From the UHGV virus genome UHGV-0354376: DNA of 13,577 nt. One strand, written 5' to 3'. Below the pieces are notes generated by a model that did no database searches, was not told where the DNA came from, and saw only the letters and a program-made list of their open reading frames with translations. This stretch comes from a virus. The position numbers and the translations under genes were made by a program. Shown here one piece after another: positions 3,451-13,577 of the stretch (positions within the stretch are counted from its first letter, which is position 1; each line of letters starts with the position of its first letter).

Positions 3451-4015
3451 TGGGCTGCTCCTTGTCTGGCTCTGCTCAAGAGCTGGTTAAACATCATGGT
3501 CAGGCTGTTACTACACCCAAACGGCATATCGTTAACACGGTAAGTAGGAATTCCCTTGCGAACACCAGACTTCACGATCCGGCCGGTGCCATAGAGTTGC
3601 GATAATGCGCCATCCTCTTGCCCGGGTGGATTGGGTTATGAGCCCGTCGCCCGGTGATGCCCTTTTCTGTTGTGCCCTGAAAAAGGCTGGCGGTTACCGG
3701 ACAAACGGGAAAACACCGGGCCGCCAGAACAGGGAGTTACTTGTTATTGCTTTGGCCTGCTTTTAACCACATCAGGCGCGGTGGTAGGTATCTTCGGGCG
3801 GGGTGCTAAGGGGGTGATTAGCCCTTGCCCTTAACACTCCTGCTGGTTTTGGTATTCCTGGCTTGGGTATCGCCACCAGCTATAGGAATTTGACTACGAG
3901 TTGCGGTTAATCAGGCCGCGCCTCTGTTACCCCTCCCGAAGACACCTGTAAGCGAATCATCCGGTTATTCATATGCCACCGGCGGCTGTCTTGCCTGTTC
4001 GCAGCTGATGAATTA

Positions 4016-4438: not shown

Positions 4439-5149
4439 CTACAGTTTATTGTAAGCTATTGATTCATGGAGTAGAGCTTTACCCATGATATACAGTTGTT
4501 CCTGATTTTCTTCAGTTATATACCAGTCTTTGTACACTGGATTATCGGACAGCACTGCAAGCTGCAAGCCCTGCATTTGTAATCGCTTCACGTGGAAGTG
4601 TTGTCCGAAAACGAACGCATAAACACCGTCCACCTTGAAATTTCTTATCGAAATATCGAAAAACAACCTGTCACCAGACTGGATGGTTGGGCACATGCTG
4701 TCGCCATCTACAGTCATTACTTTAACGTCATCCTGAGAACGATTCCCGAAGAGTGAACGAGCGTGCTCAGTGGTGAACTCAATAGCGTGTAGAACCTCAA
4801 CAAACTCAGAAATCATGAAAGACCCTGGACCTGCACTCACAGTAAGATCGAGAACTTCTACACGATAAGTGTCGATATTGCGGGCGGGTACATCAATATC
4901 CATATTTGAGGTTGGGCCAAGACCATCCAACCATCCTCTGCTGATTTTCAAAGCATCTTCGATCTGCCGAGCCGCCTGTTCACCAATATTCCGCTTATTA
5001 GGTTTACCAACAGGGTAAAGCATCCGAGAGACAACAGTCGGATCAAGCCCTGCATTTTCAGCAAACTCTTTCTGGGTTTTATAGCGAGTTACCAACTCCT
5101 GAAGTTTGAGGCGTCGTAACTCGAAGATGTCAGGCGATTCAGTTTTCAT
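4439..5149 (-). CDS. CI-like prophage repressor (N-terminal HTH, C-terminal S24 LexA-like autopeptidase domain)
   Basis: 236 aa ORF with an N-terminal HTH-like region (QKEFAENAGLDPTVVSRM) and a C-terminal S24 peptidase signature (GDSM serine motif and a downstream Lys in HVKRL). It is divergent from a Cro-like gene across a 99 bp AT-rich region. The near-absence of an SD upstream of the ATG would fit a leaderless pRM-type transcript. Confidence 0.9.
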   Translation of the reverse strand: MKTESPDIFELRRLKLQELVTRYKTQKEFAENAGLDPTVVSRMLYPVGKPNKRNIGEQAARQIEDALKISRGWLDGLGPTSNMDIDVPARNIDTYRVEVLDLTVSAGPGSFMISEFVEVLHAIEFTTEHARSLFGNRSQDDVKVMTVDGDSMCPTIQSGDRLFFDISIRNFKVDGVYAFVFGQHFHVKRLQMQGLQLAVLSDNPVYKDWYITEENQEQLYIMGKALLHESIAYNKL

Positions 5150-6760: not shown

Positions 6761-7722
6761 TTCAGTTACTTGATCGTCCAATTGCTTACAACCCGGCTTT
6801 TGCCAAGCTGAGAGTTGGCAAAGTTAAAGCTGGCCCGGTTGCGGCTGTTTTTCTTTCGCAGATGGTCTACTGGCATAACCGTATGGATGGCGGCTGGATG
6901 TATAAGACCCAGGCAGATATTGCCAGCGAGACTGCATTAACCCGTGATGAACAGGAAACGGCTCGCAAACGTCTGATACAGCTTGGCGTTCTGGAAGAAG
7001 ATCGCCGTGGTGTCCCAGCAACGATGCACTACCGCATTAATCCTGAACGCCTGGAAGCGCTGCTGCTCGAAACTACGCAGTCAGTGAAGAAGGCCGCACC
7101 TCAGAACAAAACCAGATTGCGGAACATCCAGAATGTGGAAATGCCGCAATCTGGATTGGTGCAGTCCCGCAAACTAGATTGCGGTGATTCCACAAACAAG
7201 GATGTGGATACCCCGCAAACAAGTATGGGACAACCCAACGAACAAGCCTGCGGGGATCCCACAAACTTTCATACAGGAGATTACACAGAGAATACTCAGG
7301 AGAGTACACAGGATAAAAAAACTTATTGTCCGGTTGCGGCGCAACCAGACCCTGAAGTTGTGATTACCGACCAGGCAATTTTGGTTCTGACCCATTTGAA
7401 CCAGATCAGCGGATCCAGGTATCAGAAATCCAAAACATCCCTGGAGAATATCCGCGCCCGACTGCGTGAGGGATACAGCGTTGCAGACCTGCAACTGGTT
7501 ATCGACCTGAAGCATGAGCACTGGCACGAGAACGACGAGCAGTACCAGTACATGCGCCCGGAAACGCTGTTCGGCCCGAAGAAATTCGAGAGCTATCTGC
7601 AAAGCGCTACCCGCTGGGAGCAGAAGGGACGGCCTAAACGCGCTGACTGGGGGGCGAAAAAGCGCGATGTGATGACTTTTGGTCCGGTTGATACAACGAT
7701 TCCTGCGGGGTTCAGAGGATGA
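6748..7722 (+). CDS. Phage replication initiation protein (O-like; N-terminal winged-helix domain, low-complexity linker, conserved phage C-terminal domain)
   Basis: The ATG at 6748 is preceded by AAGGAAGG (the ORF track starts at 6730). The C-terminal region (ILVLTHLNQISGSRYQKSKTSLENIRARLREGYSVADLQLVIDLKHEHW...) resembles, from memory, the conserved phage replication-protein C-terminal domain. The gene contains an internal iteron-like repeat cluster. Confidence 0.75.
   Translation: MGTLIQLLDRPIAYNPAFAKLRVGKVKAGPVAAVFLSQMVYWHNRMDGGWMYKTQADIASETALTRDEQETARKRLIQLGVLEEDRRGVPATMHYRINPERLEALLLETTQSVKKAAPQNKTRLRNIQNVEMPQSGLVQSRKLDCGDSTNKDVDTPQTSMGQPNEQACGDPTNFHTGDYTENTQESTQDKKTYCPVAAQPDPEVVITDQAILVLTHLNQISGSRYQKSKTSLENIRARLREGYSVADLQLVIDLKHEHWHENDEQYQYMRPETLFGPKKFESYLQSATRWEQKGRPKRADWGAKKRDVMTFGPVDTTIPAGFRG
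7114..7266. repeat. Iteron-like repeat cluster inside the replication gene (candidate phage origin)
   Basis: At least seven copies of an 8-9 bp motif in both orientations: AGATTGCGG at 7114-7122, its exact reverse complement CCGCAATCT at 7144-7152, the perfect inverted repeat CCGCAA-N6-TTGCGG at 7167-7184, CCGCAAAC again at about 7213, and CCACAAAC at about 7191 and 7259. A short A-rich tract follows (about 7313-7321). Analogous to the lambda ori iterons within gene O. Confidence 0.45.
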
Positions 7723-8600
7723 CGTTAAACAAATATTGCCAGGCGCTGGCGGCACTACGTAGCCATCCAGCCCACGAATTGAAAGAAGTTGGTGATCAGT
7801 GGCGGACACCGGATCTGCTTTTCTGGGGTATCAACGCGCTATTTGGGCCATTAGTTCTGGACTTGTTTGCTGACGACGACAACGCGAAGTGCCCGGCATG
7901 GTACACCGCCGAAGATAATGCGCTGACGCAGGACTGGTCTGAACGTCTTACAGAACTGGGTGGCGCTGGTTATGGCAACCCACCGTATAGCCGTTCGCAG
8001 TATCACGAGAAACAGGCGATCACCGGCATGACGCACATCATGAACTACGCAGCAACCCAGCGCGAAAAGGGCGGGCGTTATGTATTTCTGATAAAAGCTG
8101 CGCCGAGCGAAACGTGGTGGCCGGAAGATGCCGATCACATCGTATTCATCCGTGGGCGCATTGGGTTCGATCTGCCTGTGTGGTTTATACCTGCTGACGA
8201 AAAACAGAAGCCCACCAGCGCGTTTTTTGCCGGTGCCATAGCTGTATTCGATAAGTCATGGCGGGGTGAGCGGTTCAGCTATATCAACCGCACAGAACTG
8301 GAGGAAAAAGGGCGGGCATTTATGGCTTTGGCTCAATTCGCCGTTGGTAAAGAGCAAACAATCGCAATGCAGGCAGCCAGGGAACCAGCAGCAACACCGG
8401 AAGCTGAGTCACGTATCTGGCCTCTCGAGGTTGGTCTGGTGTTCAACCAGGTGGAAGGCGTTGACGTATTGAGTGAGGCTCAGCAGAACAAGCTGAAAGC
8501 CAACATCAATCAACTCTGGCTGGAACGAACGGCCACCAGCGAAATCATCACAATTGCGCGTGGTCTTGTCGGCAGCATGCAGGGGGTAACCCATGCGTGA
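7719..8600 (+). CDS. Phage DNA N6-adenine methyltransferase (Dam family)
   Basis: 293 aa ORF with the N6-adenine MTase catalytic motif NPPY (GYGNPPYSRS) and N-terminal conserved residues (WRTPDLLF, DLFADDDN) as in phage Dam-family enzymes. Start and stop overlap the neighbouring genes (ATGA). Confidence 0.9.
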   Translation: MTLNKYCQALAALRSHPAHELKEVGDQWRTPDLLFWGINALFGPLVLDLFADDDNAKCPAWYTAEDNALTQDWSERLTELGGAGYGNPPYSRSQYHEKQAITGMTHIMNYAATQREKGGRYVFLIKAAPSETWWPEDADHIVFIRGRIGFDLPVWFIPADEKQKPTSAFFAGAIAVFDKSWRGERFSYINRTELEEKGRAFMALAQFAVGKEQTIAMQAAREPAATPEAESRIWPLEVGLVFNQVEGVDVLSEAQQNKLKANINQLWLERTATSEIITIARGLVGSMQGVTHA

Positions 8601-10590
8601 GATTATCGTTGATAACTTTGCTGGTGGCGGTGGCGCATCAACGGGTATTGAACTGGCAATAGGGCGCAGCGTGGATATTGCGATCAACCACGACGAAAAC
8701 GCCATTGCGATGCACAAGACGAACCACCCGGACACACTGCATTATTGTGAATCCGTATTTGACGTGGATCCGGTAGCCGCCACCGGCGGCAATCCTGTTG
8801 GCCTGGCATGGTTTAGCCCGGACTGCCGACACTTCTCAAAGGCCAAAGGCGCAAAGCCTGTGAAAAAAGAGATACGAGGTCTGGCCTGGATTGTTCTGCG
8901 ATGGGCACTGGCGAAGCGACCGCGCGTGATGATGCTGGAGAACGTGGAAGAGTTCAAAACCTGGGGACCGTTAATTGACATCCCGCCTAAACCTGATTTG
9001 TCGGAAGCCCTTATAGGGGATTTTATTGGCCCAGTTTACCCTGGCAATAGTCGCCCAGACCCTGCCCGCGCTGGCGAAACATTCAATGCTTTTGTCGGTA
9101 TGCTTTCCACTGGCATTCCTGCCGATCACTCGGCACTGTCAGAGGTTTGTGAGTTTCTGTCTATTGAAAGAGGTAGCGAGCAGGCGCAACAGCTGGTGGA
9201 TGGGCTTGGATATGATGTTGATTATCGCGAACTACGCGCGTGTGATTACGGCGCGCCGACGATCCGCAAACGCTTCTTCATGGTTATGCGCTGCGATGGC
9301 TGCCCAATCCAGTGGCCTGCTGTTACCCATGGGGATCCTAAGTCTCTGGAGGTGCAGAGCGGCAGGCTGATGCCATGGCGTACCGCTGCGGAATGTATCG
9401 ACTGGAATGTTCCGGCTCTGTCCATCTTCGACCGCAAAAAACCGCTGGCAGAGAACACTCTGAAGCGGATCGCACGCGGCATACAGCGCTTTGTTATCGA
9501 AAGTGCGTCGCCGTTTATCGTGAAGTGCAACCACACGAGCTCAAAAAATGCGTATGACGCTTTTCGCGGACAGTCACTGAATGAGCCATTACAGACCATT
9601 ACTAAAAAACTCGGCTACGCGTTAGCCGTTCCACACCTTACAAAATTCCGCACTGGCGCAACCGGGCAGCCCGTTACCGAACCTGTTCCGACGGTAACCG
9701 CTGGCACGTCAAAACGCCCGGGCGGGAACGGGCATGCTCTCGGGATTGTTGAGGCTGCATTGACACCATTCCTGGCGGGTAATGGTGGTAGTGAATACCA
9801 GGCTAAACCGCGCCCGCTGAATAAACCTGCTCATACCATTCTGAAGCAATCCCGAGCCTGTCTTGTTGCGCCAGTGATAGCCCGCCAGTTTGGGGCCAGC
9901 GTCGGCCACCGTGCAGACGAACCGAGCGCAACCATCACCGCTGGTGGTGGCGGTAAATCTCAACTGGTAACGCCTACGCTGATCCAGATGGGTTATGGCG
10001 AACGACCTGGACAAGAACCGCGTGTGCTGCGGCTGGATAACCCGCTGGGGACCGTTACTGCAGGCGGAAATAAATTTGCGACGGTGAGCGCATTCCTGGC
10101 GAAACACTACGGCGGTAACTATACGGGGCCGGGTGTCAGTATGGATGAACCCGCGCATTCAGTGACCACTGTCGACCATCATGCGGTAGTTGCCTCTCAT
10201 CTGGTGAAACTGCGTGGAACATGCCGCGACGGGCAACGCCTTGATGTGCCAATGCCAACAATCACTGCTGGTGGCCAACACGTGGGTGAGGTACGCACAT
10301 TTCTCGAGACGTATTGCGGGGAAAGTGACGATGAATGGCTGGTAACGATCGATGGGGTTAAATACCAGATCGTTGATATCGGAATGCGCATGTTGCAGCC
10401 GCATGAACTCTACAAAGCGCAGGGCTTCCCGGATGGATACGTTATTGATCAGGACTACCGTGGAAATCGCTATGCAAAAGATAAGCAGGTAGCCCGCTGC
10501 GGTAATGCGGTACCACCACCATTCGCCCGGGCGCTGGTTGAGGCAAATCTTCCGGAACTGTGTGCAGTGCAACAGCAGGAGGTGGCATGA
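8593..10590 (+). CDS. DNA cytosine-5 methyltransferase, large (665 aa), with an extended variable/target-recognition region
   Basis: C5-MTase motifs are visible: motif I FAGGGG, the catalytic Cys region SPDCRHFS, motif VI MLENVEEF (ENV), and a motif VIII-like PTIRKRFFMV. AGGGGG RBS 6 nt upstream. Stop overlaps the rusA start. Confidence 0.85.
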   Translation: MREIIVDNFAGGGGASTGIELAIGRSVDIAINHDENAIAMHKTNHPDTLHYCESVFDVDPVAATGGNPVGLAWFSPDCRHFSKAKGAKPVKKEIRGLAWIVLRWALAKRPRVMMLENVEEFKTWGPLIDIPPKPDLSEALIGDFIGPVYPGNSRPDPARAGETFNAFVGMLSTGIPADHSALSEVCEFLSIERGSEQAQQLVDGLGYDVDYRELRACDYGAPTIRKRFFMVMRCDGCPIQWPAVTHGDPKSLEVQSGRLMPWRTAAECIDWNVPALSIFDRKKPLAENTLKRIARGIQRFVIESASPFIVKCNHTSSKNAYDAFRGQSLNEPLQTITKKLGYALAVPHLTKFRTGATGQPVTEPVPTVTAGTSKRPGGNGHALGIVEAALTPFLAGNGGSEYQAKPRPLNKPAHTILKQSRACLVAPVIARQFGASVGHRADEPSATITAGGGGKSQLVTPTLIQMGYGERPGQEPRVLRLDNPLGTVTAGGNKFATVSAFLAKHYGGNYTGPGVSMDEPAHSVTTVDHHAVVASHLVKLRGTCRDGQRLDVPMPTITAGGQHVGEVRTFLETYCGESDDEWLVTIDGVKYQIVDIGMRMLQPHELYKAQGFPDGYVIDQDYRGNRYAKDKQVARCGNAVPPPFARALVEANLPELCAVQQQEVA

Positions 10591-10986: not shown

Positions 10987-11670
10987 ATGAGCCAATTAGC
11001 AACAACAGCATTAACCATGTCCAGCAGCGATATTGCTGAGCTGGTGGAATCACGACATGACCATGTTAAACGGTCCATTGAACGCCTGGCAGAGCGCGGT
11101 GTTATTGAACTCCCCCCAATGGGGGAAGTTAAAAATCACCTCAATCAGTCGGTATCGGTTTATCTGATAGGGAAGCGGGACAGTTATATCGTTGTCGCGC
11201 AGCTGTCGCCGGAGTTTACCGCGCGTCTGGTTGATCGCTGGCAGGAGCTTGAGCAGGCACAGCAGCAGACGATTCCTCAATCATTCTCTGAAGCCCTACG
11301 TCTTGCAGCTGACCTTGCAGAACAAAAACAGCAGTTGACTAACGAACTGGCTGCCGCGGCGCCGAAGGTAGCGTTTGTTGATCGGTACTGTACAGCCAGT
11401 GGGTCAATGTCATTCCGCCAGGTGGCAAAACTGCTTAAGGCCAAAGAGCCAGATCTGCGGTTATTCCTCCTTGAGAACGACATCATGTATCGCCTTGGCG
11501 GAACGATGACTCCACGGCATCAGCATATTGATGCGGGCCGTTTTGAAGTGAAAACCGGCACATCCGTGACCTCAAATCATGCATTCAGCCAGGCACGTTT
11601 CACGGCGAAAGGCGTGCGCTGGATTGGTGGACTGTGGGCAGAACACATTGTCAGGGGGCAGGTCGCGTGA
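10987..11670 (+). CDS. Phage antirepressor-like protein (Rha-like N-terminal region, KilAC/Ant-like C-terminal domain)
   Basis: The ATG at 10987 with GGAG 6 nt upstream gives 227 aa. The N-terminal region (SSSDIAELVESRHDHVKRSIERL) resembles Rha-type regulators and the C-terminal region (FRQVAKLL...MYRLGG) the antirepressor KilAC-type domain. Family calls are from memory. Confidence 0.7.
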   Translation: MSQLATTALTMSSSDIAELVESRHDHVKRSIERLAERGVIELPPMGEVKNHLNQSVSVYLIGKRDSYIVVAQLSPEFTARLVDRWQELEQAQQQTIPQSFSEALRLAADLAEQKQQLTNELAAAAPKVAFVDRYCTASGSMSFRQVAKLLKAKEPDLRLFLLENDIMYRLGGTMTPRHQHIDAGRFEVKTGTSVTSNHAFSQARFTAKGVRWIGGLWAEHIVRGQVA

Positions 11671-12656
11671 GGGCTTTGTTAACTCCTGAAGTAGCCCATC
11701 GTATGGGGATTGTGTTGTTCCGTCCCGGTGCGGAACTGATGCACATCTTCATGCGCGGTCGCGTTCTGCTAGAGCCTGAACCAGAAGAAATGGCGTCATT
11801 CAGTACCGGGGCTGTTCCTGCAGCCATTCAGCCGCTGGCTGAGGATCCGGTAATGCGGCAGGTCTTCGAGAATGAGCGGGTTATTCATCGCGCCGGTGGG
11901 CTGGCTTCCCTCGAGCAGTGGCTGAGTTCAAGATTTGAATGCCAGTGGCCACATTCATCGTGGCATGACAAGAACTTCACAACAATGCGGCACCCACCAG
12001 GAAGCATTCATCTGTGCTGGCATTGCGATCACACTTTGTCCGGGCAGCATACTAAGCAGCTTGCAGGTATAGCGGCAGGAAACTTGGTATCCTGGATTCT
12101 GGAAGTTATTCGTCGCGATTCTGGTTTTCCCGAGTCGCATGTACTGACGTTGCCGGAACTGTGCTGGTGGATGGTCAGAAACGACCTGGCTGATGTTATT
12201 CCGGAAAGCGTTGCGCACAAAGGGCTGCGCCTTCCGGATGAGAACATCCGCTCTGTCATGAGGGAAAGCGACATTGTGCCTTCAGCGTCTGCAACCAGCC
12301 TCGTGCAGGAGAAGGCGAAGAAGATCCTCACGCTCTCTGTTGATCCGGAGTCTCCAGAATCTTTCATGCTCAGACCAAAACGTCGTCGCTGGATAAATGA
12401 GACGTACACCCGCTGGGTTAAAACACAGCCCTGTGAGTGTTGCCGACGGCCAGCAGACGACCCCCACCACATGATTGGCCACGGGCAGGGTGGAATGGGT
12501 ACAAAAGCACACGACCTGTTTGTGATACCGCTGTGCAGAGCACATCACAACGAGTTGCATGCTGATCCCGTGGCATTTGAAGCGAAATACGATGACCAAT
12601 TGGTGTTGGTTTTTCGAGTTATAGATCGAGCGCTGGCAATTGGCGTGCTGGCATAA
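11634..12656 (+). CDS. DUF968-like prophage protein with a C-terminal Cys/His cluster; start uncertain
   Basis: Long ORF in the position usually occupied by DUF968/YdfU-like genes upstream of Q in enterobacterial lambdoid prophages. C-terminal cluster CECCRRPADDPHHM...CRAHHNELH. Candidate starts are the GTG at 11634, the GTG at 11667 (overlapping the upstream stop) and the ATG at 11703. Confidence 0.6.
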   Translation: MGRTHCQGAGRVRALLTPEVAHRMGIVLFRPGAELMHIFMRGRVLLEPEPEEMASFSTGAVPAAIQPLAEDPVMRQVFENERVIHRAGGLASLEQWLSSRFECQWPHSSWHDKNFTTMRHPPGSIHLCWHCDHTLSGQHTKQLAGIAAGNLVSWILEVIRRDSGFPESHVLTLPELCWWMVRNDLADVIPESVAHKGLRLPDENIRSVMRESDIVPSASATSLVQEKAKKILTLSVDPESPESFMLRPKRRRWINETYTRWVKTQPCECCRRPADDPHHMIGHGQGGMGTKAHDLFVIPLCRAHHNELHADPVAFEAKYDDQLVLVFRVIDRALAIGVLA

Positions 12657-12670
12657 ATGGAGAAAGCTTA

Positions 12671-13249
12671 ATGATTAATCCTTCTGAAGTTGGCAAGGCT
12701 GGTGAAATGGTGCGCCTTCGTACTCTGGAAAGCATCTGGATACAGGGTAAGTTGCGCATGTGGGGCCGCTGGTCTTATATCGGCGGTGGTAGTGGTGGGA
12801 ACATGTTTAACCAGCTTCTAGCGTCTGGGAAAATCACCAAGACAGCTATCAATGATGCGCTGCGCCGTATGAAGAAAGCGGGTATCAGCAAACCTGAACT
12901 GGAAGCATTCTTCAAAGAGATTCAGGAAGGGAATAATAAAAGCGGTCTGGCGTTCTGTACCGATGAAGAAGCGCTGGCCATCAACGCTGTACTCAGCGGT
13001 ATCCTTGTTCAGTCAGGGCATAAGAAGTTATACGCTCTTATTGAAGATCGTTATATCAAGCGCCTGAGCAAAAAAGCGATGGCCAGAGACTTAAATGAAA
13101 AACATCCTGAATGGTGTTTGCGAACCTGTGAAAGCCGGATTGATGTTTGGCTAAATGTAGCAGAATCGATGCTATACAAGCCAATGTGTGATGCATTCGG
13201 CACAAATAGCGACAGATTCTACTTGAATAATTGCGCGGAAAGTGCTTAA
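12671..13249 (+). CDS. Putative late-gene antiterminator (Q-like)
   Basis: 192 aa ORF with a GGAGA RBS, last in the nin-like region and immediately followed by a candidate promoter and terminator pair, the canonical Q / pR' / tR' arrangement. Assignment is by synteny and a vague family recollection, not by verified homology. Confidence 0.45.
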   Translation: MINPSEVGKAGEMVRLRTLESIWIQGKLRMWGRWSYIGGGSGGNMFNQLLASGKITKTAINDALRRMKKAGISKPELEAFFKEIQEGNNKSGLAFCTDEEALAINAVLSGILVQSGHKKLYALIEDRYIKRLSKKAMARDLNEKHPEWCLRTCESRIDVWLNVAESMLYKPMCDAFGTNSDRFYLNNCAESA

Positions 13250-13251
13250 AT
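13223..13251 (+). promoter_or_regulatory. Candidate late promoter (pR'-like): -35 TTGAAT, 17 bp spacer, -10 TTAAAT, overlapping the stop of the Q-like gene
   Basis: Sigma70-like hexamers with optimal spacing, located where pR'/qut is expected relative to a Q gene. Prediction only. Confidence 0.3.
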
Positions 13252-13301
13252 TGTGATAAGCTCGGGACGTTAAAGCGAACTGAGCAACAGAACAAATAGT
13301 A

Positions 13302-13323
13302 ACCCGCCGCTGTGCGGGTTTTT
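13302..13323 (+). terminator. Rho-independent terminator (tR'-like)
   Basis: 6 bp stem ACCCGC/GCGGGT with a 6 nt loop (CGCTGT), followed by TTTTTGCGTTTC. It lies about 50 nt downstream of the candidate late promoter. Confidence 0.55.
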
Positions 13324-13577
13324 GCGTTTCTGGGGGGATATAAAATGCACAAGTAAAACGGGCAGGCCGCAACCGAATGGTAAAGCAGCAGTCATAATGC
13401 TGCCCCGAGTCTCCGCGTAGAGAGCCAGCTTTGCATCTGGTGAGGGTTAATAAGAAAAGAAGCACCGGTGCCGCCGTGTAATCGCCAATTACGCACTGGT
13501 TAGAGCTAACGGGGAGCAAAGACGAACCGGGGTAACGATCTCAAGGGCATGGGCGCGTCCACTGCGAAAGTGTGGAT

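Follow-up and report, generated by a model that had tools for sequence, protein, structure and literature searches.

The right end of the viral genome UHGV-0354376, a 13,577-nt stretch of DNA that is called the window here, raises the question of what lies behind the terminator that follows a Q-like antiterminator gene. The original prediction had placed a promoter-like element and a terminator behind this gene, and had suggested that the DNA further downstream could be part of a small RNA or the leader of the lysis operon. We studied the final 355 bases of the window and found that this description of the downstream DNA was too weak, since a separate, complete structured module of ~245 nt is located there. 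With high confidence, Module 2 (13332–13576) represents a complete copy of an unannotated ~245-nt RNA family of the sense strand, and with the same high confidence Module 1 (12671–13323) represents a Q-type late-gene switch consisting of a Q21-like gene, a conserved promoter/pause region, and a terminator. We propose, with a probability of roughly 0.4, that Module 2 is a ribosome-docked RNA module acting in cis at the level of the operon. Conservation, covariation, the geometry of a very short open reading frame (mini-ORF), and genomic context were observed directly, and from these we infer transcription, translation of the mini-ORF, and function.

In a megablast search, positions 13404–13575 matched unannotated intergenic DNA with 89–91% identity in two phages, Klebsiella phage phiKO2 and Edwardsiella phage EPP-1. 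These loci, together with weaker matches in mEp237, mEp213, and Stx2c phages, had a common anatomy with compensatory changes in a GCAGCA hairpin. Homologues were retrieved from IMG/VR twice and independently, with a pattern from the 3' end of the element and with a pattern from its 5' half, and each retrieval gave at least 120 contigs. The 135 distinct copies gathered in this way set a lower limit for the family, of which at least 135 distinct copies occur in prophages and phages of Enterobacterales, including mEp213, mEp237, phiKO2, and Stx2c phages. The pseudoknotted element was analyzed by nhmmer and by direct pair counting. A family hidden Markov model (HMM) trained on 93 copies, with the window copy left out, gave a single nhmmer match in the window at 13328–13576 (E = 2.6e-52), and the window ends 1 nt past the last helix, P10, so that the copy is complete. 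In the copies fetched by the 5' pattern, the 3' motif was still conserved yet varied, with covariation. Among 5426 complete E. coli genomes, 131 (~2.4%) carried the element, which was never annotated as RNA. A genome scan found full-length copies in ~42 species representatives, all of them Enterobacterales, and nowhere else; matches outside Enterobacterales consisted of a 21-mer only and were discarded. The carriers span Escherichia, Klebsiella, Edwardsiella, Pectobacterium, and Hafnia. Four loci (L014, L070, L034, and L053) are truncated or recombinant copies that retain the 3' two-thirds, their 5' part (the mini-ORF, P1, or the sequence through P4a) being swapped for unrelated sequence.

Rfam 15 gave no family match when searched at E ≤ 1–10 with the element from the window, phiKO2, EPP-1, and 8 further loci, and the Rfam check of 13250–13577 that had been suggested earlier also came back without a family. 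The chance-level Rfam matches in the window and 10 homologous loci (aceE-II, isrJ, istR, and microRNAs) were rejected. ARAGORN found neither a transfer RNA (tRNA) nor a transfer-messenger RNA. A full-text literature search with conserved sequence words and the names of carrier phages turned up no publication that describes the element, an earlier description elsewhere being possible, and a 2025 review of phage small RNAs (sRNAs) lists nothing like it (PMC12197685).

The RNA is predicted with high confidence to have eight or more helices plus a pseudoknot (Table 1). The pair counts of the helices were based on an alignment of 94 sequences of the family (A1), on which RNAalifold found helices with abundant compensatory changes. 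When 8 helices comprising 34 pairs were specified by hand and scored on A1, 96.8% of the cells were paired, compared with 31–34% when the partners were slid by 1–3 columns, and changes on both sides of a pair were found in 338 cells, compared with 70 ± 7 in shuffled alignments; none of 500 shuffles reached the observed values. The best-supported helices were P3, the inner part of P7, and P10. P3 is the hairpin GCAGCA-N7-TGCTGC that had been picked out by eye in the original prediction; it is real and well beyond chance, though it lies ~3 nt from the place assigned to it, and each of its six pairs showed 13–43 compensatory double changes among the 94 homologues. In P4, 75 sequences had C-G at the pair 90/150 and 18 had U-A. 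P9 alternated between CTCA/TGAG and CCCA/TGGG in copies that had been fetched independently by the 5' pattern.

The pseudoknot helix, Ha, was formed by 3–7 nt of the P5 loop and bases just 5' of P7. At least 8 compensatory versions were found, including TGC/GCA (the window), CGC/GCG, AGC/GCT, CACAC/GTGTG, CATACC/GGTATG, TATGC/GCATA, and TACGC/GCGTA, and the mean pairing was 3.9 bp for matched partners vs 2.5 bp for swapped ones. The hairpin P1, next to the mini-ORF, never varies, and covariation therefore neither supports nor refutes it. RNAalifold proposed a long-range alternative to P1, in which CCG at 13367–13369 pairs with CGG in GCGCGG, and because all positions of this alternative are invariant, it is likewise beyond a covariation test. 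In one subtype, the mini-ORF and the 3' flank seemed by eye to pair in a closing helix (GAAGCACU / AGUGCUUU); this helix failed in other subtypes and was rejected.

G-U pairs were frequent on the plus strand only (for example, 15 at 176/208 and 13 at 272/290); read from the opposite strand, each of these would be an A-C mismatch, and it is therefore the sense strand that folds. This bears on the alternative that a protein gene on the minus strand, such as the frame at 13172–13519 (115 aa), explains the conservation. Long stop-free runs are indeed found on that strand (median 69/86 codons), and 16 of the 135 copies are fully open. However, the open frame is inconsistent, falling into the three frames in 58, 42, and 16 copies, it has neither a Pfam nor a PHROG match, and both the compensatory changes and the strand-specific G-U pairs point to a plus-strand RNA. 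The minus-strand ORF was rejected for its inconsistent frame and the absence of a family match, and we consider a protein-coding origin of the conservation extremely improbable. A "hypothetical protein" is sometimes annotated over the element (E. coli RefSeq H73, H74, and H95; RothC/RothD), and such entries are probably spurious ORF calls on the stop-poor minus strand.

The original prediction had seen no convincing ORF in 13324–13577. The absence of a protein gene was confirmed; what had been overlooked was a mini-ORF of three codons. An ATG was located just upstream of P1 in 110 of 118 copies, and 105 of these 110 had a Shine-Dalgarno-like 4-mer, mostly 7–8 nt from the ATG. The ORF had a length of 1–3 codons in 108 of the 110. 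The peptides (M, MK, MKH, MKQ, and MVH; MHK in the window) were not conserved, the position of the stop codon was variable, and the second codon was AAG in 60 of the 110 mini-ORFs. With a Shine-Dalgarno sequence and at most three sense codons in 108/110 copies, the element would be classed as a minigene or start-stop ORF. The distance from the A of the ATG to the first paired C of P1 (CGG) was 14 nt in 89 of the 110 copies and 13–15 nt in 106; it was 14 nt in the window, and it was independent of the position of the stop. On an mRNA, an initiating 70S ribosome reaches to about +15, so that at a distance of ~14 nt the fold would begin at the leading edge of the initiating ribosome. In 16 copies the mini-ORF consists of a start codon directly followed by a stop codon, which suggests that unwinding of P1 is not essential. 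Judged from these alignments, ribosome docking is the feature of the mini-ORF that appears to be conserved.

The location at the 5' end of the late transcript also fits a passive 5' stabilizer or processing site of the mRNA, or the lysis-operon leader that had been the fallback of the original prediction, its hairpins being incidental, and a ribosome-binding site with stable hairpins is a known feature of mRNA stabilizers. Such a role would not require the conservation of sequence and structure across genera, the pseudoknot, or the fixed spacing between the ATG and P1, all of which exceed its needs, and we regard it as improbable.

The genes upstream of the copies on the same strand were cI-type repressor genes or Q genes. 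In the former context, the order was repressor, pL, boxA/boxB (nutL), element, and N gene. In the latter, the element followed one of three unrelated Q families (PF03589, PF06323, and DUF1133/PF06530, the last in the window), with holins or other genes downstream. A few copies were located after Rz/spanin genes, and the phiKO2 copy lies near the right end. Whatever the type of antiterminator, the element was located in lytic operons under antitermination control. Behind Q genes, the element begins right after the T-run of tR', with the shared junction TTTTGCGTTTCTGGrGG, and the same junction was found after tR' of other Q families in mEp237 and in the loci L016, L036, L041, and L061. The likeness of the window to E. 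coli DUF1133 prophages stops at the terminator T-run (megablast and alignment A2, described below). HK022 (L258 9835–10000) and mEp237 (L004 2160–2270) have lambda-type pR' regions with a …AACGATGG… pause motif, a very short leader, and a terminator ending in TTTTTGCGTTT; since an identical T-run tail follows an unrelated type of Q in the window, the terminator tail looks like a recombination junction. The first downstream genes were diverse, with 67 clusters among 108 proteins, and only 12 of 100 copies had a terminator of their own. In a crude test, no copy was flanked on both sides by opposite-strand genes.

Several other features were seen around the copies. In several pL leaders (L008, L044, L050, and L059), the DNA that separates boxA (CTCTTTAACAA) from the element includes another conserved non-coding stretch (…GCAAAYYGAAATGGCGCC…), ~60–130 nt upstream of the element, and this stretch may be boxB-like or a further structured segment of the leader. 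Upstream of the EPP-1 copy, 1.2 kb of non-coding DNA includes pieces (L002 ~3640–3760) resembling the 3' half of a tRNA (…GGTTCAATTCCAGACACTCCCA…, …GTTCAATTCGGACACCGGCA…), which may be remnants of an attachment site or tRNA fragments. The pL operon of mEp213 (L005) has two N-like genes, at 1161–1493 and 2646–2918, with the RNA element between them.

The lack of a promoter of its own, the clustering at operon heads, and the indifference to the next gene favor an operon-level role in cis. In the window prophage, RNA of the element would be made only when polymerase reads through tR' following the action of Q, and it would form the first 245 nt of the late transcript. The mini-ORF would then dock a ribosome directly against the folded domain, and the particle of ribosome and fold would act in cis on the whole operon, controlling the fate of the long lytic transcript, either by protection from Rho or RNases or by processing, and not the expression of one downstream gene.

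The same fold, in which several helices meet at a junction with a pseudoknot and in which unpaired nucleotides are conserved, lies in a 5' leader and could belong to a riboswitch-like sensor, the pseudoknotted core of which binds a metabolite or ion and gates the operon. Against this, the downstream genes are functionally unrelated, there is no match to an Rfam aptamer, and no consistent expression platform was found, the distance to the next ORF being variable and a terminator being present in 12% of copies. On that count we discarded the idea of a terminator as a built-in expression platform, and we regard a sensor as quite improbable.

The element lies on the sense strand, either heading long operons or separating lysis from packaging genes, and its first downstream genes are diverse. 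This would also suit an RNA that acts on polymerase in cis for processive antitermination or against Rho, like HK022 put or the Bacillus EAR element, and that boosts read-through of the operon; its only conserved partner would be a host machine. The carrier phages, however, already encode N and nut, or Q. The put RNAs, defined in HK022, are ~70 nt long with two stems and no ORF (PMC9378689), and an antitermination role would leave the mini-ORF unexplained. The family HMM found nothing in HK022 27000–40751, the region that includes putL and putR (nhmmer best E = 11), and homology to put was rejected on this result; blastn gave no match in HK022 or HK639. An antitermination RNA of this kind seems rather unlikely to us.

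The main rival to a cis role is a trans-acting decoy or cargo RNA. In this alternative, a 245-nt RNA would be cut from the lytic transcript, or would survive it, and the stable particle so formed would target some conserved part of the host, such as the ribosome, a nuclease, a defence protein, or a toxin. It would serve as a moron for counter-defence or host takeover, the ribosome on the mini-ORF and the 3' hairpin protecting its ends or delivering the RNA to ribosomes. The mosaic, accessory distribution at moron hot spots (after tR', in the gap between pL and N, and after Rz), the conserved loop and junction sequences, the restriction to Enterobacterales hosts, the lack of a conserved partner gene, and the terminator that some copies have of their own, for example in phiKO2, are all in line with cargo. 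It is less easily reconciled with the strong clustering of copies at operon starts, the lack of a conserved promoter of their own, the 88% of copies without a terminator, and the absence of any sign of processing. We consider a trans-acting RNA possible yet doubtful.

Several points weigh against our explanation of the two modules. Its transcript, ribosome, and phenotype sides are inferred from sequence. Protection in cis would be partly redundant, as polymerase modified by N or Q already resists terminators and Rho. Close relatives of the window prophage lack the element, which indicates an accessory, horizontally exchanged module, and this status fits a trans-acting cargo RNA equally well. 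Eight of 118 copies lack the ATG, and 12 of 135 lack a recognizable P1. The homologues were fetched by sequence patterns, and the apparent conservation at the query motifs is inflated for that reason. P1 and most of P9 do not vary and lie beyond the reach of covariation. The folding energy of the whole element in the window copy was not better than that of shuffled sequences (z = +1.08), so that it is covariation that carries the case for structure. Finally, the promoter and start position of Module 1 are at the level of candidates.

In Module 1, the Q-like identity of the ORF held. The ORF matched Pfam DUF1133 (1.9e-90), PHROG 753 "anti-termination protein Q-like" (9.5e-69), and PF06530 Phage_antitermQ (2e-9; 37.8 bits, above the curated cut-off of 26). 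Its top match in the PDB was Q21 of phage 21 (6P18/6JNX, E = 0.023), with which it has the motif W..G.L..WG.W.Y in common. The protein is a remote homologue of the Q21 family. A homologous DUF968-DUF1133 pair was present in 53 E. coli genomes, and in all four prophages that were examined the order was DUF968, DUF1133, ~80 nt, a variable moron, holin, and lysozyme. Judged by this synteny, the DUF1133 gene appears to be in the position of Q; the window itself stops short of any lysis gene, and the lysis synteny was read from the four homologous prophages.

The 3' end of the DUF1133 gene and the downstream DNA were aligned for five homologous modules (A2). In A2, the 50 nt from the stop codon to the terminator were nearly invariant (13250–13300), exceeding the conservation of the 3' end of the coding sequence, and this near-invariance is compatible with a Q-binding element and a pause element. 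The hexamers proposed earlier as a promoter are present and overlap the stop codon, as had been described. However, a sigma-70 promoter scan gave no site in 12000–13577, and the −10 hexamer TTAAAT is weak and variable: it has no A at position 2 and becomes TTGAAT in two of the five modules, in which the alternative −10 TAAATT loses its A as well. The sole promoter-like motif with all key positions invariant was TGnTAAGCT, in which TG, TA, and the final T were unchanged in 5/5 modules and the n position varied, and we consider it a better candidate for a promoter or a pause element. It may act either as an extended −10 element, with a start near 13268 and a terminated RNA of ~55 nt, or as a sigma-dependent pause element, with a start near 13258 and an RNA of ~67 nt. 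Since the sequence does not fix the start site, the length of the putative short RNA spans ~55–67 nt. We know of no sequence rule for DUF1133-type Q.

Positions 13258–13325 folded with −24.2 kcal/mol (z = −2.73). The putative short transcript from pR' contains, ahead of the terminator, a conserved hairpin at 13260–13285, GCUCGG...CUGAGC with an inner CGU-UAAA-GCG. Rfam gave only a chance-level match of the putative short RNA to isrJ over 13246–13323 (15.3 bits, cut-off 37, E = 6.3). As this RNA would end at ~13323, the GCAGCA hairpin of Module 2 lies outside it.

The strong intrinsic terminator of the original prediction was borne out by its stem, its T-run, a call on both strands in the terminator scan, and a hairpin energy of −10.9 kcal/mol (z = −2.15); in the homologues its stem was invariant and its loop variable. 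It falls within the ~200 nt from the start site that are expected of a Q-dependent cassette. In E. coli relatives (L127, L128 2220–2699 on the minus strand, and L003 4729–5202 on the minus strand), a reverse gene for a hypothetical protein of 159 aa adjoins the same terminator, which therefore serves both directions, and strain TST3 has a copy of ISKpn26 beside it. The published layout of a Q cassette consists of the Q gene, pR', a pause element, and a terminator (bioRxiv 10.1101/651190), and StxS is a precedent for terminated pR' transcripts that are regulatory sRNAs (PMC7547250). Positions 13223–13323 plausibly form such a Q-type late cassette, from which the short RNA would be released in the absence of Q. 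The Q-utilization layout of the original prediction stood as far as the Q gene, the conserved non-coding stretch, and the terminator are concerned, with candidates for the promoter and the start.

The window covers the left and central portions of a prophage of the lambdoid type, with further genes for a replication protein, Dam and Dcm methylases, RusA, and a KilAC/Rha antirepressor. The neighboring DNA methyltransferase genes at 7719–10590 encode a Dam-type (PF05869) and a 665-aa Dcm-type (PF00145) enzyme, and a dATP/dGTP pyrophosphohydrolase gene is located at 2070–2936 on the minus strand in the early regions of the prophage.

Table 1. Features of Module 2, of Module 1, and of the remaining window, with the evidence or remark for each
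Feature	Position	Strand	Evidence or remark
5' junction of the RNA module, GCGTTTCTGG...	13324–13344	+	Shine-Dalgarno GGGGGG at 13332–13337
Mini-ORF ATG CAC AAG TAA (M-H-K)	13345–13356	+	With upstream Shine-Dalgarno
P1 hairpin ACGG-GCAGG-CCGC	13358–13370	+	CGG/CCG core invariant in 94 sequences
P2 small variable hairpin ACC-GAAT-GGT	13372–13381	+	All 3 pairs changed on both sides
P3 hairpin GCAGCA-GTCATAA-TGCTGC, conserved loop	13385–13403	+	6 pairs covary; arms 13385–13390 and 13398–13403, loop 13391–13397
P4 CCC 13404–13406 / GGG 13444–13446	13404–13446	+	Encloses P4a and P5
P4a TCTC / GAGA, candidate helix	13410–13413 / 13420–13423	+	Seen in the alignment and in single-sequence folds
P5 CCAG / CTGG, candidate helix	13425–13428 / 13437–13440	+	Seen in the alignment and in single-sequence folds
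Pseudoknot Ha	13432–13464	+	TGC 13432–13434 (P5 loop) with GCA 13462–13464 (5' of P7); purine-rich linker 13447–13461 between the partners
P7 outer CCGG 13465–13468 / CTGG 13496–13499	13465–13499	+	Outer pairs 95.7% paired
P7 inner GTGTA / TACGC	13476–13480 / 13490–13494	+	8–29 double changes per pair; loop with conserved GCCA 13484–13487
Variable P8 region, fold not assigned	13500–13539	+	3 alternative versions in the family
3' domain (P9, GCGCG linker, P10)	13540–13576	+	
P9 CTCA / TGGG, loop AGGGCA	13540–13543 / 13550–13553	+	Covariation in 5'-pattern copies
P10 TCCAC / GTGGA	13558–13562 / 13572–13576	+	Outer pairs with 25 and 10 double changes
Q-like antiterminator gene, DUF1133, 192 aa	12671–13249	+	Pfam, PHROG, and PDB matches; synteny
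Promoter hexamers of the original prediction, TTGAAT-17-TTAAAT, weak candidate	13223–13251	+	Visible in the sequence; TTGAAT 13223–13228, 17-nt spacer, TTAAAT 13246–13251; stop codon 13247–13249
TGnTAAGCT, extended −10-like element	13254–13262	+	Alignment A2; role inferred
Nearly invariant leader of the putative short transcript	13260–13300	+	Alignment A2
Intrinsic bidirectional terminator, tR' candidate	13301–13323	both	Terminator scan, A2; stem AACCCGC 13301–13307 / GCGGGTT 13314–13320; T-run 13319–13323
Integrase	27–1340	−	Window gene annotation
S24-type cI repressor	4439–5149	−	Window gene annotation
DUF968 HNH protein	11634–12656		Directly upstream of the DUF1133 gene

The element has gone unannotated in early-left and late operon leaders, although lambdoid phages are among the best-studied genetic systems, and its presence in cultured phages (mEp213, mEp237, phiKO2, and Stx2c phages) makes it directly testable. 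A new layer of control linked to antitermination, or of manipulation of the host, could come to light through it, also in Shiga-toxin phages. We tentatively raise the further possibility, to which we give less credence than to its converse, that it represents a new class of phage RNA device, in which the mini-ORF of 1–3 codons serves to dock an initiating ribosome at a constant distance from a pseudoknotted fold. The particle of RNA and ribosome would have a dedicated function in lytic growth, either switching antiterminated operons under the control of translation or acting as a counter-defence decoy linked to the ribosome, and the device would have spread horizontally among temperate phages of Enterobacterales behind four unrelated antiterminator systems. 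At minimum, the element merits an entry as an RNA family, which would end the spurious "hypothetical proteins" over it. The Q gene and terminator add another member to a textbook switch and tie DUF1133 proteins to Q function.

When compared with known systems, Module 1 resembles the lambdoid Q/pR'/pause/tR' cassette (lambda 6S and StxS) in the order of a Q-family gene, a conserved non-coding region, and a terminator, in the short terminated RNA that is expected, and in its probable position before lysis genes. It differs in its Q, a DUF1133 protein with no more than remote similarity to Q21, and in that the predicted RNA of ~55–67 nt has no Rfam match. Module 2 shares with the orphan RNAs ROOL, GOLLD, and HEARO a complex conserved fold in prophage intergenic regions, but it is much smaller, has a mini-ORF, is restricted to Enterobacterales, and has no Rfam match. 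Like HK022 put, it is a structured RNA transcribed in cis near the starts of lambdoid operons with no dedicated phage protein as a partner; put, however, replaces N and consists of ~70 nt with two stems and no ORF, whereas the element, with ~245 nt, a pseudoknot, and a mini-ORF, is found alongside N or Q.

The lambda bar minigenes and bacterial start-stop mini-ORFs have the strong Shine-Dalgarno sequence, the ORF of 1–3 codons, and the irrelevance of the peptide in common with the element, but bar minigenes have no conserved folded RNA attached, whereas the start codon of the element is fixed 14 nt from a structured domain. In the control of repZ/repA in IncI-alpha/IncB plasmids, translation of a leader peptide enables formation of a pseudoknot, and a short leader ORF abuts the helices. 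The element is likewise an RNA of an enterobacterial mobile element in which a short ORF abuts helices and a pseudoknot. It differs in having no evident antisense RNA, no fixed downstream start codon, and a far shorter ORF, which in 16 copies is a start-stop ORF, so that the ribosome would not need to unwind P1.

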